From Clostridiales bacterium (GTDB lineage: Bacteria > Bacillota > Clostridia > Christensenellales > Borkfalkiaceae), in contig DOCD01000154.1 of the NCBI GenBank assembly GCA_003503945.1, positions 1-28,821 of the forward strand: a stretch of DNA of 28,821 nucleotides. The letters run 5' to 3'. Shown here piece by piece: positions 19,606 through 24,702 of this stretch. Under the pieces are notes generated by a model. The model worked only from the letters and a program-made list of their open reading frames with translations, ran no database searches and was not told where the DNA came from. Position numbers and translations under genes: made by a program. Numbering within the stretch: position 1 is the stretch's first letter; each line of letters opens with the position of its first letter.

Positions 19606-20955
19606 CTATTTACGTGTAAGCACGGCGAGCGTTTCGCACCACTTGCTTTGGGGAAACATGTCGAAGGGGGTCACGCTTTTCAAAACGTAACGGCTTTCGG
19701 GCTCGGCGCATTTTTTAAGCTCTCCGCCCTCCTCTACGAGGGTGCCCAGCAAAATCCCCAAATCGCGCGCGAGCGTCGCGGGGTTGCAGGAAACAAGTAT
19801 TACCTTATCCGCGCCCGAGGCGGCAATGGCTTTAACCACGCTCCGCTCCATACCCTTTCTGGGCGGGTCGCAGACTATTATCCTGCGCATGCCTTCGGTC
19901 TCGGAAAATACCTTGCCTACATTGTCCTCCACCGCGCCGCAGATATTGAACATTTTTTTATCGAGCCCGTTTGCGGTTTTCAGCTCGTCCGCGCAGCGCG
20001 AAGCCTCCTCCACGATTTCTATTCCGTACGCCCGCCCGCATTTTTTCGCGAGCATAGCGGTCAGCATGCCGCCGCCGCTATACAAATCGATTGCCGCCGA
20101 GCTCTCCTCCGCCTCGTTAAGAACCGCCGAATACAGCTTTTCGCGCATAACGTCGTTGACCTGCAAAAAGGTCATCGCGCCCGCCTTGTACTTTATTCCG
20201 TTTTGCTCCGCTTCGAAAAAGCCGTCGCCGCGCAATATGCGCCACTTATCGTCGAAAATCACGTTCGTGTCGCCGTCGTTAATATTGAGTAAAAACGTAA
20301 AATCCTTAAAATATTCCCCGAGCGAGGATATGAGCGGGGCGGCGTTTATCGCCTTTTTTACGACAAGCGCGAATATGTGCCTACCCTGCAATTCGCGCAC
20401 AACTATATGGCGGATAACTCCCCTTTCCGCCGTCGCCGCGAAGTTTTTTACGGCGGCGAACACCTTCTCCGCCCACTCAGCCTGAATGGCGCAGCTTTGC
20501 GTTTCGACTATGCGGTGGCTGTGCCTCGCGTAAAAGCCGAGCTCGCCGTTTTCGCCCACGGGCAGAACCAACTTATTCCTGTAACCGAACTGCTTTTCGC
20601 ACGGAACGGTTTCGTTCACCGCGGCATATATGCCGCCTATTTTATTTAAAGAATTTAAAACGCCGTCCTTTTTGAATTTAAGCTGCGCGTCGTAATCCAT
20701 ATGCTGCAAATCGCAGCCGCCGCATTTGCCGAAAACGGGGCAAACGGGCTTAACCCGCGCATATGACGGGGTCAACACCTTTAAAAGCTTGCCGTAGGCG
20801 ATATTTCCTTTAACTTTAAGCGCCTTGATAAGCACCCTTTCCCCCGTTACGCAAAAAGGCACAAACACAGTTGTGCCATTGATTTTGATTATTCCCTCGC
20901 CGTCCGTGCCGTATCCTTCGACGAGTCCTTCGTATTCTCCGTTTTTAACCAACAT
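19606..20955 (-). CDS. rlmD: 23S rRNA (uracil-C5) methyltransferase, RlmD/RlmCD family
   Basis: TRAM domain, CPVFGKCGGCDLQH 4Fe-4S motif, FLQVN, DLYSGGG, DPPRKG, VSCNPATLARD, DMFPQSKWCE. Confidence 0.92.
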   Translation of the reverse strand: MLVKNGEYEGLVEGYGTDGEGIIKINGTTVFVPFCVTGERVLIKALKVKGNIAYGKLLKVLTPSYARVKPVCPVFGKCGGCDLQHMDYDAQLKFKKDGVLNSLNKIGGIYAAVNETVPCEKQFGYRNKLVLPVGENGELGFYARHSHRIVETQSCAIQAEWAEKVFAAVKNFAATAERGVIRHIVVRELQGRHIFALVVKKAINAAPLISSLGEYFKDFTFLLNINDGDTNVIFDDKWRILRGDGFFEAEQNGIKYKAGAMTFLQVNDVMREKLYSAVLNEAEESSAAIDLYSGGGMLTAMLAKKCGRAYGIEIVEEASRCADELKTANGLDKKMFNICGAVEDNVGKVFSETEGMRRIIVCDPPRKGMERSVVKAIAASGADKVILVSCNPATLARDLGILLGTLVEEGGELKKCAEPESRYVLKSVTPFDMFPQSKWCETLAVLTRK

Positions 20956-20961
20956 ACACTT

Positions 20962-21327
20962 TTAACCGCACCCGTCGCAAATTGCTTGGCACAAGCCGGA
21001 ACCGCAACATTCGCAAAACCCTAACGCGCAGACCTCCGCGCCGCCCATCTGACCTTTCTTCTGCTGCTTGTACTCCTCGCTCTTTCGGAAATTTTCGAGG
21101 TCGTCGAACGCCGCCCTGTACTGCTCGTTTTCGGGCTCTTCCTTTACCGCGCGCTTATACTGTTTATAAGCTTCCGCATACCAATTCTTAGCCATAAACA
21201 GCTTGCCCTGCAAATAATATTTTCTGCCGCTCTTTTCCCTGACCGCGTCCAAAAGCTTCTGCGCCTCTTCCAACTCTCCGCTTTCGATAAGCTCTTCAAC
21301 GCGGTTTAAGCTTTCGTTTTCGTCCAT
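20962..21327 (-). CDS. Small TPR protein with a QMGG plus Cys-rich tail
   Basis: TPR-like YYLQGKLFMAKNWYAEAYKQYKRAVKEEPENEQY; tail QMGGAEVCALGFCECCGSGLCQAICDGCG. Confidence 0.82.
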   Translation of the reverse strand: MDENESLNRVEELIESGELEEAQKLLDAVREKSGRKYYLQGKLFMAKNWYAEAYKQYKRAVKEEPENEQYRAAFDDLENFRKSEEYKQQKKGQMGGAEVCALGFCECCGSGLCQAICDGCG

Positions 21328-21329
21328 AA

Positions 21330-21887
21330 TTATTTCCTTATTCTGTAAACGAGCATATCCACAGCCGTCTGCGTTTTGAAAATAAGATAGTCGTACGGGA
21401 AGAAAATTATCGTTCCTCCCAGAAAAATGAACCAGTAAATATAGGTGTTCAGAAATTGATAAAAGGAATTATCCGCGCTGTCGCCGCCGAGTATTCCGCC
21501 GAAGATAAGTATATACGCGACCCACAGCGTGAAATCGAACCACACCGTTTTGACGGCGAGCGCAATCCACCTGTTTATTTTATATTTGACCTGCAAACAG
21601 TTGATTAACGGGTGCAGCCCGAAAAACATTATAAAGGGCACCAAATCCCAGAAGCGGACCGCCGCGCCCATTACTATTGCAAGAATAACCGTTCCGAGAT
21701 ACGCGAGAAAGCCGCCCCTTATAAACTGTTTTGAAAGGGGCACCATAAGCGCGACCATGCCGAAAAGATAGCCCGAGGCAAGGAGCACGTTGCTCCAGAA
21801 CCCCAGCAAAAGGCACACCACCGCCACGGCGCACGATATTGCGGACAGCGCTATTTCAAACGAACGGGAATACTTGCGTTTACTCAA
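21330..21887 (-). CDS. Uncharacterised multi-pass membrane protein
   Basis: About five to six hydrophobic segments; tight spacing with its neighbours. Confidence 0.8.
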   Translation of the reverse strand: MSKRKYSRSFEIALSAISCAVAVVCLLLGFWSNVLLASGYLFGMVALMVPLSKQFIRGGFLAYLGTVILAIVMGAAVRFWDLVPFIMFFGLHPLINCLQVKYKINRWIALAVKTVWFDFTLWVAYILIFGGILGGDSADNSFYQFLNTYIYWFIFLGGTIIFFPYDYLIFKTQTAVDMLVYRIRK

Positions 21888-21902
21888 CTTTTCACCACGC
21901 CG

Positions 21903-22523
21903 TCAGCGGCAGCAAGTGTTGCAAAGGCAGTTTATGCACATGTTTATATAGCAACACTCTATGCAGTTAGCGCAGAAATTCCCGCCCATCTGATTATCTG
22001 CCTGAGAGTTCATAGTCTGCCCCTCGTACACGGTCTGCTGTTCGCCCGCAGCCGAACGGCTCGCGTCGTAATTGACCTTTTCGTTGAGCTTTTTGTATGC
22101 TTCCTTGTACTTTTCGTTATCGGGTTCCAACTGAATGGCGATTTCAAGCTGTTTTTTGCTTTCGTTTATCCAGTTTTTGCGGTAGAACACAACGCTTTGA
22201 AGGTAGTGCCATCTGCCGCCGCGCTCGTTAAAGCTATCCAGAACGCGCTGCGCTTCGGCGATATTGCCGTCCTTTATAAGCTCCTCCACGCGCGTGAACG
22301 AGCTGTCGCCGTCCTCCGCGGCGGCGTTTTCGGAAAGCTCGCGCATTAAGTCGTTATACGCGTTTTCAAGCTGCGTGAGCATTTTCGCCGCGTGGTTGCC
22401 GACCTCCCCGTCCATAAACCGCTCTTCGAGATATTTCGCCCTCAGCGTTTCATAAGCCGAAGTTACGTCCTCTTTTGTCGCCCCCTCCGAAAGTCCGAAA
22501 AGTTCAAGATTTTTTTTGTTCAT
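21903..22523 (-). CDS. J-domain-like plus TPR protein with a QMGG plus Cys-rich tail
   Basis: AAGGAG SD before ATG 22523. J-like LELFGLSEGATKEDVTSAYETLRAKY(LEE); TPR WHYLQSVVFYRKNWINESKKQLEIAIQLEPDNEKY; tail QMGGNFCANCIECCYINMCINCLCNTCCR. Confidence 0.85.
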   Translation of the reverse strand: MNKKNLELFGLSEGATKEDVTSAYETLRAKYLEERFMDGEVGNHAAKMLTQLENAYNDLMRELSENAAAEDGDSSFTRVEELIKDGNIAEAQRVLDSFNERGGRWHYLQSVVFYRKNWINESKKQLEIAIQLEPDNEKYKEAYKKLNEKVNYDASRSAAGEQQTVYEGQTMNSQADNQMGGNFCANCIECCYINMCINCLCNTCCR

Positions 22524-23382
22524 TTTTAGCTCCTTTTTTCTTGCACTCGCATTTGACAAGACTTCTTGTCTTTAAAGGTATTCCCCTTAATATTATATTG
22601 TCGGTCAAGTCGTGATTGAATTTGAAATTGATCTCCGAAAGTCTTTGCCGCATATCGGCGAAAAGGCTGTCGAACATAAAGTTTATTTCATCGCGGTTTG
22701 CGGCTACCGCCTCCGCCTTCGAAGGAAGCTTATACGCATTGTACAGCGCGTTGTATCTGCCTTTTTTTACGTCCTTGTCGTAATCGTCCAAAGCGTCGGC
22801 GAGATATACCCACTTGCCCAAATCGTAAAACAGCGCTTCCGTCGCGGGGGTGGAAAATTCCTTTAACGCGTACGCCGAAAGCCGCTGCATCATAACCGCC
22901 GTAGGCTCGCACGCCATATCGATTATCGCGCAGCCCGCTTTTTCGAGCTCCGCCTGCGCCCTCATCTGTTCTTCTATGATATCCACAGCCTGTTTATGCC
23001 TTTTCAGCGCGCGTTTCAAACCCTTTTTGTAGAGGTGGCGCAAAACCCCCTTTTTGTCGCCGTCCGCCTTGTCGTCGCAGAGCTTATAATACGCAAGCGC
23101 GGTATTGATACAGCCCAAAAGCACGGTGGTATCGTCCTTCGAAGCAATCGGGCGGCGTTTGAACCAGTGAATGGCGCAGCGCGCCTTTTTGATTTCGACG
23201 TCCTCGTGCCTTATGTTATGAATAAGCGCGGACATAAACGCCATATCGTAGGTCAGGGCGGTGCGCGCCCTCTGCCCGCAGCCCGAGCCTATACTTTTAC
23301 ATAACCCGCAGTACAAAGCCTGATACAGCTTTTCGTCCTTTTTAAAAAGATAGGGCGAATCGGGCTGAATATAACCGAACAT
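22504..23382 (-). CDS. DUF5685-like protein
   Basis: GGAGG SD, then MFGY...YCGLC...ALTYDMAF, an N-terminus I recognise as DUF5685 (from memory). Asp-rich motifs DDKAD and DALDDYDKD. Its 3' end overlaps the next gene by 20 nt. Confidence 0.8.
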   Translation of the reverse strand: MFGYIQPDSPYLFKKDEKLYQALYCGLCKSIGSGCGQRARTALTYDMAFMSALIHNIRHEDVEIKKARCAIHWFKRRPIASKDDTTVLLGCINTALAYYKLCDDKADGDKKGVLRHLYKKGLKRALKRHKQAVDIIEEQMRAQAELEKAGCAIIDMACEPTAVMMQRLSAYALKEFSTPATEALFYDLGKWVYLADALDDYDKDVKKGRYNALYNAYKLPSKAEAVAANRDEINFMFDSLFADMRQRLSEINFKFNHDLTDNIILRGIPLKTRSLVKCECKKKGAKNEQKKS

Positions 23383-23515: not shown

Positions 23516-24514
23516 TTAATTTTGATAAAACCCTATTTTTTTATAAACTTTACTGAGCGTTTTATTCGCCGTAAACGCGGCGCGTTCCGCGCCCGACTTC
23601 AACACACCGTCGAGGTACGCCTTGTCGGCGAGCAGCCTTGCCTGTTCGCACTGAATGGGCGCAAGCTTATCGGCGACCGCCTCCCCCACGGCAAGCTTGA
23701 AATCGCCGTAGCCCTTGCCCGCGAAGTCCGCCTCCGCCTCCGCCATGCTTTTATCCGTGAATACCGAATAAATAGAAAGCAAATTGCTCACGCCGGGTTT
23801 ATTTTCGGGGTCGAATTTTATTACCGCTTCGCTATCGGTTACGGCGCGTTTGAATTTACGAATAACGGTATCCTTGTCGTCCGAAAGGAATATGCTGCCG
23901 TTCGCGTTTTCCGCCGACTTCGACATCTTTTTGGACGGGTCCAAAAGGTCGCAGATCTTCGCGCCGGCTTTGACGTAAACGCATTCCGGCACGGTAAACG
24001 TGGGCGAATATGCGTTGTTGAAGCGCTGGGCGATATCCCGCGCGATTTCCACGTGCTGGGTCTGGTCCTTGCCGACGGGCACGTAAGCCGTCTGATATAA
24101 GAGGATATCCGCCGCCATTAAAACGGGGTAATCCATAAGCCCCATATTTATATTATCGGCGTGTTTTCTGCTCTTATCCTTAAACTGCGTCATTCTTTCC
24201 ATTTCGCCGACGTAGGTGAACGTGTTTAAAACCCAGCAAAGCTCGGCATGCGCGGGCACGTGCGACTGTACGTATAAAACGCACTTTTCGGGGTCTATTC
24301 CGCAGGCTATATACAGCGCGGCGAGTTCGAGCGTGCGCCGCCTGAGCTCCGCGGGGTTCTGCCTGACGGTAATCGCGTGCATATTCGCGATTGCGTAAAA
24401 GCAATTGTAATCGTTTTGCAGCGCGACGAAATTTTTTACCGCGCCCAGATAATTGCCTATCGTTAAACTGTTTGTCGGCTGAACCGCCGAATACAGATTT
24501 TTATTTTCTTCCAT
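23516..24514 (-). CDS. trpS: Tryptophan--tRNA ligase
   Basis: QPTNSLTIGNYLGA (HIGH-like), QSHVPAH, YPVLMAADIL, VPVGKDQTQH, KMSKS. Confidence 0.97.
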   Translation of the reverse strand: MEENKNLYSAVQPTNSLTIGNYLGAVKNFVALQNDYNCFYAIANMHAITVRQNPAELRRRTLELAALYIACGIDPEKCVLYVQSHVPAHAELCWVLNTFTYVGEMERMTQFKDKSRKHADNINMGLMDYPVLMAADILLYQTAYVPVGKDQTQHVEIARDIAQRFNNAYSPTFTVPECVYVKAGAKICDLLDPSKKMSKSAENANGSIFLSDDKDTVIRKFKRAVTDSEAVIKFDPENKPGVSNLLSIYSVFTDKSMAEAEADFAGKGYGDFKLAVGEAVADKLAPIQCEQARLLADKAYLDGVLKSGAERAAFTANKTLSKVYKKIGFYQN

Positions 24515-24537
24515 AAGTTTTACACAACCTCACAATA

Positions 24538-24566
24538 ATGATAACATATCCGTACCCAAAAAGCAA
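24538..24566 (-). promoter_or_regulatory. Probable trpS promoter
   Basis: TTGCTT (24566-24561), 17 bp, TATCAT (24543-24538); 23 nt from the -10 box to the ATG. Confidence 0.55.
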
Positions 24567-24702
24567 AGATTTTTTTGACGAATAACCCATAATCACCAAA
24601 CTTGCCCCCGTTTAACACCTCAAATACACGAAAACGGCGCCGCTTTTTACAAAAATCACGCACAATAATTAACCCGCGTTTTTAGTTGCCAAAATAAGGA
24701 AT

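Follow-up and report, generated by a model that had tools for sequence, protein, structure and literature searches.

Within the 28,821-nucleotide (nt) contig DOCD01000154.1 of a Clostridiales bacterium, which in its whole length is referred to here as the window, a gene for a DUF5685 protein heads a compact minus-strand cluster that also encodes two proteins with cysteine-dense C-terminal tails and a membrane protein. Our analysis revealed that this feature is real, widespread, and uncharacterized. Clostridia and related Bacillota share a conserved module of three genes, in which DUF5685 is combined with a Cys-tailed partner and a membrane protein, and the cluster of the window is one of its copies. 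The best-supported reading of the module, which we put forward tentatively and on the basis of sequence comparisons and structure models, is that DUF5685 may use a prenyl diphosphate to S-prenylate the Cys tail of its partner and thereby tether this J-domain/tetratricopeptide repeat (TPR) adaptor to the membrane.

The cluster follows trpS and consists of four tightly packed, co-directional genes, all of whose coordinates refer to the minus strand. The DUF5685 gene (22504..23382; ATG start behind GGAGG) encodes a protein of 292 amino acids (aa) with a predicted class I isoprenoid synthase fold. Its stop is overlapped by 20 nt (22504-22523) by the gene for the 206-aa partner (21903..22523; ATG behind AAGGAG), which combines an HPD-less J-like domain with TPR-like repeats, a Gly-rich linker, and a Cys-string tail. 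After a gap of 15 nt follows the conserved third gene of the module, encoding a 185-aa polytopic membrane protein whose predicted fold resembles the S component of energy-coupling factor (ECF) transporters (21330..21887), and, after another 2 nt, the gene for a 121-aa TPR-only, Cys-tailed paralogue of the partner (20962..21327). No convincing minus-strand terminator was found between the genes of this co-directional run, which includes trpS and the genes beyond the cluster described below. A first-pass annotation of this DNA had pointed out 2 Asp-rich motifs, the 20-nt overlap, the intervening membrane gene, and the QMGG followed by Cys-rich tails, and on translation all of these proved to be placed and spelled correctly.

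The coupling between DUF5685 and the Cys tail was assessed in a phylum sample of 301 genomes, using a profile of the TPR-plus-tail part as the probe. The matches were bimodal: full-length matches with E <1e-18 were obtained in 26 genomes, all 26 of them DUF5685-positive, and generic TPR matches had E >1e-10 and left the tail uncovered. Strong matches to the tail family were absent from the DUF5685-negative genomes (0/264). The expectation that DUF5685 co-occurs with Cys-tailed proteins elsewhere is thus borne out by a near-absolute association. At the level of individual loci, DUF5685 is followed immediately downstream, in 24 of 29 other loci of this sample, by a gene whose product measures 130-240 aa and has a Cys-rich C-terminus. 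Among the remaining 5, the partner is cut by a contig end in 1 and unassessable in another, 2 lack a partner (L030 and L009, the latter truncated on its upstream side by the end of the contig), and in 1 (L029) the tail is fused to DUF5685; adjacency of DUF5685 and partner was recorded for 25/29 sampled loci. The fused form (L029/L039) is a DUF5685 protein with a 44-residue tail that contains 14 Cys and stands behind a His-rich stretch.

This arrangement recurs in 80 additional loci of species genomes, which are mostly Christensenellales-like or belong to other Clostridia, Ruminiclostridium cellobioparum included. The partner lies downstream of DUF5685 in 79 of them, directly so in nearly all (a 484-nt gap is found in L130), and the membrane gene then follows in at least 75 of the 80. 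Approximately 12% of the genomes sampled from the phylum carry the module. Two search patterns matched at least 597 species genomes, the partner-protein clusters number more than 7,000, and the module was also found in Carboxydothermus hydrogenoformans and Acetivibrio cellulolyticus.

A few loci deserve separate mention. The sole locus of the 80 without an intact partner open reading frame (ORF), L133:3879-4580, has approximately 700 nt between DUF5685 and the membrane gene, with no ORF of at least 50 aa on the DUF5685 strand, and may contain a decayed partner gene. In L089:2193-3080, either a frameshift or an assembly error has divided DUF5685 between two ORFs (169 and 121 aa), with partner and membrane genes intact. 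One genome (G190) encodes 2 complete DUF5685-plus-partner pairs on separate contigs (C22:23866-25377 and C1:64086-65568).

The DUF5685 gene matches Pfam family PF18937 over profile positions 1-270 of 272, with 219.2 bits at a gathering cut-off of 26.7. From an alignment of 118 diverse homologues (24-66% identity), which also underlies the conservation counts given below, an AlphaFold2 model with a pLDDT of 95.1 and a pTM of 0.92 was obtained. Searching with this model in Foldseek returned class I isoprenoid synthases for every match in the PDB, at marginal E-values, and placed ComQ in the top three positions among Swiss-Prot models. An isoprenoid-synthase-type fold, as the first-pass annotation had suspected, is therefore the predicted one, and it appears closest to that of trans-prenyl diphosphate synthases. 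A profile search of PDB sequences with DUF5685 yielded designed helical repeats only, which we judged to be compositional.

The residues that would form the active site of such an enzyme are conserved to a degree that points in the same direction. The first Asp-rich motif, DDKAD (D103-D104-K-A-D107; 23062..23076), resembles the first aspartate-rich motif (FARM) of prenyl synthases, with D103 present in 117/118 and D107 in 116/118 homologues; the second, DALDDYDKD (D196-A-L-D199-D200-Y-D-K-D204; 22771..22797), resembles their second aspartate-rich motif (SARM), with D196 and D200 present in all 118 and D204 in 116/118. E147 and N211 are each found in 118/118. The best hhalign path against 30 polyprenyl synthases places D103-D104-x-x-D107 on the DDxxD of the FARM and D196-x-x-x-D200 on the first and last Asp of the SARM, in an alignment that is itself not significant (probability 3-8%) and was therefore used for motif register only. 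The paired motifs noticed in a single sequence are thus near-invariant across the family, and such an Asp/Glu/Asn pattern would be expected of an active Mg-diphosphate site. In contrast to chain-elongating synthases, DUF5685 has no recognizable GGKRxR, the basic motif that binds isopentenyl diphosphate, and has therefore not been filed among these enzymes. In a weak global alignment, the position of the GGKRxR loop is occupied by a beta-hairpin (residues 64-80 in the model) that carries C69 and K75-K76-R77, suggesting that the acceptor site may have been rebuilt.

Fold and motifs would likewise suit an enzyme that makes or modifies a small isoprenoid lipid, with the tail protein and the membrane protein serving as regulatory or scaffold partners rather than as substrates. 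MoeN5 and Ord1, both small-molecule enzymes, are indeed among the best structural matches of the DUF5685 model, and the third gene of the module resembles an ECF S component, that is, a small-molecule-binding protein. However, what co-occurs almost absolutely with DUF5685 is the tail itself, whichever domain bears it, and a fusion of tail and DUF5685 is hard to explain unless the enzyme acts directly on, or together with, the tail. We therefore consider a small-lipid enzyme unlikely.

Besides the Mg-diphosphate motifs, exactly 3 Cys residues are invariant in DUF5685, namely, C25 and C28, which form a C25-x-x-C28 motif in helix 1 (23299..23310; each 118/118), and C69 in the loop of the beta-hairpin, where it precedes the variable position 72 (23167..23178; C69 118/118). 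Among the 118 homologues, position 72, which is His in the window copy, is occupied by His in 63, by Asn in 31, and by Ser in 12. A role of His72 as a fixed fourth metal ligand was rejected, since the residue is present in just 63/118 homologues. Three Cys with a variable fourth position are typical of open-site Fe-S or catalytic Zn centers.

Both Cys-tailed proteins of the window carry QMGG ahead of their tails, which contain 9 Cys in 23 residues in the 206-aa partner (CANCIECCYINMCINCLCNTCCR, 21906..21974) and 7 Cys in 22 residues in the 121-aa paralogue (CALGFCECCGSGLCQAICDGCG, 20965-21030). Against a background of 2% Cys, derived from long ORFs of the window, these densities correspond to binomial P values of ~3e-10 and ~2e-7, respectively. 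The TPR segments of the 2 proteins had been reported as shared, and they are indeed homologous, with 36% identity over the aligned C-terminal halves in a 24-member family alignment; the paralogue matches the family profile with E 2.3e-30. At the N-terminus of the 206-aa partner (22329-22511), a J-like domain was identified that reads YLEERF in place of the relatives' YHPDKF and thus lacks HPD; it has no match to Pfam DnaJ (PF00226) and only a weak one to ActJ (E 7.7e-4). Rather than plain TPR adaptors, the partners are more aptly called J-domain/TPR co-chaperone-like proteins. Since none of the 80 related loci has a second copy (0/80), the TPR-only gene of the window is a lineage-specific extra; 2 other assemblies of the same organism share the window arrangement, including this copy. 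Co-folding of DUF5685 with the 206-aa partner, with scores of 0.64, 0.01, and 0.20, provided evidence neither way.

Across genomes, the majority of partners contain a true, HPD-bearing J domain (Pfam DnaJ, 60-73 bits), followed by a TPR-like repeat pair, a polar Gly/Gln-rich linker, and the tail. The HPD is missing in 60/73 partners of the window's clade (Christensenellales-like loci, L078-L157), while partners from other Clostridia retain it; judging from these sequences, this looks like a clade-wide loss of the capacity to stimulate Hsp70, with the remainder of the protein kept. In Carboxydothermus, the genes encode, in this order, a divergent DUF5685, a TPR-only protein with the ending CCECMGGDFISCC, and the membrane protein, and the J domain is absent altogether. 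Therefore, DUF5685, the tail, and the membrane protein are the constant elements of the module, and the J domain is optional. A further HPD-less J-like/TPR protein, with a much reduced tail (...ACGGGGGNGGMC), is encoded apart from the DUF5685 gene of the same genome, which lies at a contig start (L076:2865-3374, contig C19 of G115).

The tails themselves fall into 3 types. The acidic type, C..C...L.C.DCCCECMGGDLISCC, has 8-11 Cys, 3-5 Asp/Glu, and 0 basic residues and is kept across distant families. The greasy type, for example CLGLCMTRLCMTVCCGSPL, has 5-6 Cys, and the third type is that of the window's own partner. Greasy tails include 19-mers with a grand average of hydropathy (GRAVY) of 1.2-1.6, which would be compatible with a tail that acts as an unmodified hydrophobic or amphipathic anchor, with the tail-anchored Escherichia coli J-proteins DjlB and DjlC as precedent (PMC8215388). 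DUF5685 could then be an inactive assembly factor with an isoprenoid synthase fold, like NDUFAF6, which is among the AFDB structural matches of its model. However, the acidic tail type would be unable to span a membrane, and the invariant Asp, Glu, and Asn residues of catalytic type argue for an active site in DUF5685, so that we regard an unmodified anchor as improbable.

The first tail Cys is commonly preceded by a Gly-rich stretch. This stretch takes the form MGG within the window's clade, whereas its register is unconserved family-wide, and the stretch is therefore read as a linker rather than as a cleavage site. The idea that QMGG might be a double-glycine cleavage signal is thus not upheld, all the more as the cluster contains neither a C39-peptidase nor an ABC exporter gene. 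The same observations bear on a system for a ribosomally made, post-translationally modified peptide (RiPP) or pheromone, in which the tail would be prenylated, cut after GG, and exported, in the manner of ComQ/ComX. While ComQ is the top Swiss-Prot model match of DUF5685 and Gly-Gly stands ahead of both window tails, a folded J/TPR "leader" of 170 aa would be atypical, the tails are conserved across families instead of diversifying, the cluster also lacks two-component genes, and the gene context of the module is one of housekeeping (trpS, tyrS, uvrAB, atp). We consider such a system very improbable.

Several loci connect the module with prenyl donors and with Hsp70; these cases are few, but they come from independent lineages. 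In L039:6553-9488 (G165), the gene for the DUF5685-tail fusion overlaps into an operon whose other products are a protein of 161 aa, a polyprenyl synthase (168 bits), and a membrane protein of A24-peptidase-like type, and this block lies between hypF and hypD/hypC/tatC/hypB/hypA. In L071:4748-7999 (G282), an operon in which Hsp70 is encoded together with a polyprenyl synthase (145 bits) and a membrane protein is convergent with the gene for a divergent 409-aa DUF5685. Furthermore, Hsp70 genes are located directly upstream of DUF5685 in L004 (L004:3-1439) and L017 (L017:1-1458). The window's genome encodes one polyprenyl synthase.

In the mechanism that we infer, DUF5685 would bind a prenyl diphosphate, such as farnesyl or geranylgeranyl diphosphate (FPP or GGPP), supplied by the single polyprenyl synthase of the genome. 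The diphosphate would be ionized on the Asp-bound Mg cluster, and the prenyl group would be transferred to thiolates of the tail, with the Cys triad possibly holding a Zn or Fe-S center by which the acceptor thiol is positioned or activated. Once lipidated, the tail would anchor the J/TPR adaptor at the membrane's inner face, where the co-encoded membrane protein is a possible docking point. In its fullest form, this proposal would make DUF5685 the first member of a bacterial family of protein S-prenyltransferases on a trans-prenyl-synthase fold, with a thiol-activating metal center at its 3 invariant Cys and with J/TPR co-chaperone-like adaptors anchored at the membrane through their Cys-string tails; we regard this broader claim as possible but somewhat speculative.

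Several observations weigh against S-prenylation of the tail. The hhalign comparison with polyprenyl synthases lacks significance, as stated above, and the first Asp of motif 1 is weakened in some DUF5685 subfamilies. All characterized peptide prenyltransferases that resemble trans-isoprenyl diphosphate synthases (trans-IDSs) act on Trp and not on Cys (PMC13290415). Moreover, the commonest tail type, which is acidic and strongly conserved across families, is no less suited to forming a defined metal site than to serving as a lipid anchor, and the fused DUF5685, with its His-rich stretch, sits among hyp genes, which function in Ni handling.

These last points lead to the main rival of S-prenylation, according to which the tail is a metal or Fe-S module instead of a lipidation site and shares or exchanges a metal center with the DUF5685 triad. 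An intact J domain would recruit Hsp70 for the hand-over, in the way that HscB works with HscA and IscU, and DUF5685 would then be either a metal-dependent isoprenoid-diphosphate enzyme or a client. The 3 invariant Cys with their variable fourth position would be well accounted for, as would acidic tails that keep their spacing across families with no basic residues, the location of the fused, His-preceded tail between hypF and hypD/C/B/A, and the Hsp70 genes upstream of DUF5685 in L004 and L017. On the other hand, the number and spacing of tail Cys vary sharply by subfamily, from 5 in a greasy 19-mer to 11 in an acidic 25-mer, with the window tails differing again, which argues against one fixed cluster geometry. 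With HPD lost in 60/73 partners of the window's clade, recruitment of Hsp70 can also not be essential. Finally, a metal role leaves unexplained the invariance of the Mg-diphosphate motifs, which still call for a diphosphate substrate. Taken together, we consider a metal or Fe-S function of the tail to be a serious possibility but not a probable one; it is worth noting that prenylation and metal binding are not mutually exclusive.

The product of the third module gene is a possible membrane site for the tethered adaptor. The model of the 185-aa protein reached a pLDDT of 77, corresponding to moderate confidence, and matched AFDB clusters named "ECF transporter S component" with TM scores of 0.72-0.74, while a language-model atlas gave a weak pointer to DUF2232. 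None of 8 orthologues had a Pfam or NCBIfam match, and no genes for ECF A or T components were found in the cluster. We thus describe the protein as having an ECF-S-component-like predicted fold, an assignment of moderate confidence to which no functional claim is attached. In some Clostridia, the module is flanked by a gene for a different membrane protein of approximately 135 aa, whose C-terminus carries a CxxC...CxxC zinc ribbon (L002:1079-1489, L006:458-877, and L036:6475-6870). This gene lies upstream of DUF5685 in some cases and downstream of the partner in others, and it replaces the ECF-S-like gene in those loci that were followed far enough.

The surroundings of the module are conserved in part as well. 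In the window, trpS (23516..24514, minus strand; Pfam tRNA-synt_1b, 257 bits) lies upstream of the cluster in the same direction, and the order trpS-DUF5685 is also found in loci L089, L096, L126, and L130. Downstream, 6 nt beyond the TPR-only gene, follows a co-directional gene for a RumA/TrmA-type RNA methyltransferase (19606..20955, minus strand; assigned by Pfam matches), and next beyond it a gene for a DUF445 protein. In the relatives L126, L089, and L096, the RumA-type gene comes directly after the membrane gene. No Rfam family reached its gathering score anywhere in the window (1-28821), including the trpS leader (24515-24700), where a T-box might be expected. Metatranscriptome contigs match only short pieces of the cluster (21772-22013, 22410-22604, and 22976-23192) and, being contigs, do not amount to a demonstration of transcription.

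Existing annotation and literature offer little on any of these proteins. Public names are "DnaJ/J domain-containing protein" for the partner family and "hypothetical protein" only for the DUF5685 and membrane families, and neither NCBIfam nor Pfam has a family for the tail. In the literature, we found a single mention of DUF5685, in a list, and nothing specific on bacterial cysteine-string J-proteins. The existence of a prokaryotic protein farnesyltransferase has been stated to be largely unknown (PMC8669142). The module offers a testable candidate enzyme-substrate pair for the question of whether bacteria prenylate their own proteins on Cys. If the S-prenyltransferase reading is true, prokaryotes would have an endogenous equivalent of eukaryotic protein prenylation and of the cysteine-string protein, and with it a new route of protein lipidation and a new means of positioning Hsp70 co-chaperones at membranes. 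Should the tail bind metal instead, it would constitute a new type of Cys-string metal motif, linked to enzymes with an isoprenoid fold.

Among known systems, the closest parallels are ComQ, PalQ, and ChrPC, trans-IDS-like enzymes that prenylate peptides encoded beside them (2026 review, PMC13290415). ComQ/ComX, PalQ, and the P domain of ChrPC share with DUF5685 the predicted fold superfamily with two Asp-rich motifs, and in each case the enzyme gene adjoins a gene whose product has the likely target in its C-terminal region. However, all characterized ComQ-type enzymes modify Trp in short secreted peptides, whereas the candidate target here is a Cys string on a cytoplasmic protein of 120-240 aa; DUF5685 adds the invariant Cys triad; and no signaling kinase or regulator, such as comP- or comA-like genes, is found near the module. 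With farnesyl and geranylgeranyl diphosphate synthases (FPPS and GGPPS), long-chain IDSs, and MoeN5, DUF5685 has the FARM- and SARM-equivalent Asp residues in common, but it differs from them by the missing GGKRxR and shows only 8-12% identity.

With respect to the partner, DjlA, DjlB, and DjlC are specialized bacterial J-proteins located at the cytoplasmic membrane, as the partner would be. In E. coli, the tail-anchored DjlB and DjlC work with HscC, and DjlA works with DnaK (PMC8215388), and some copies of the module similarly adjoin an Hsp70 gene of their own; unlike the partners described here, however, the Djl proteins use a transmembrane helix and have neither a Cys string nor a partner with a prenyl-synthase fold. 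The membrane protein differs from established ECF S components (RibU, FolT, BioY, and ThiT) in having no sequence-family match and no ECF A/T genes beside it, at the moderate model confidence given above.

Another close functional analogy of the partner is with eukaryotic J-proteins that are lipid-anchored through Cys, namely, Ydj1/DNAJA, which is farnesylated at a CaaX motif, and the cysteine-string protein DNAJC5, which is palmitoylated. Like most members of the partner family, these proteins combine a J domain with a Cys-dense segment, which in eukaryotes is lipidated for membrane tethering, and many of the bacterial tails end in CC, like Rab proteins. The homology is limited to the J domain, which in the window copy lacks HPD, and the eukaryotic lipidation enzymes are DHHC acyltransferases or Zn prenyltransferases with an alpha-alpha-barrel, and not class I isoprenoid synthase folds such as that predicted for DUF5685.

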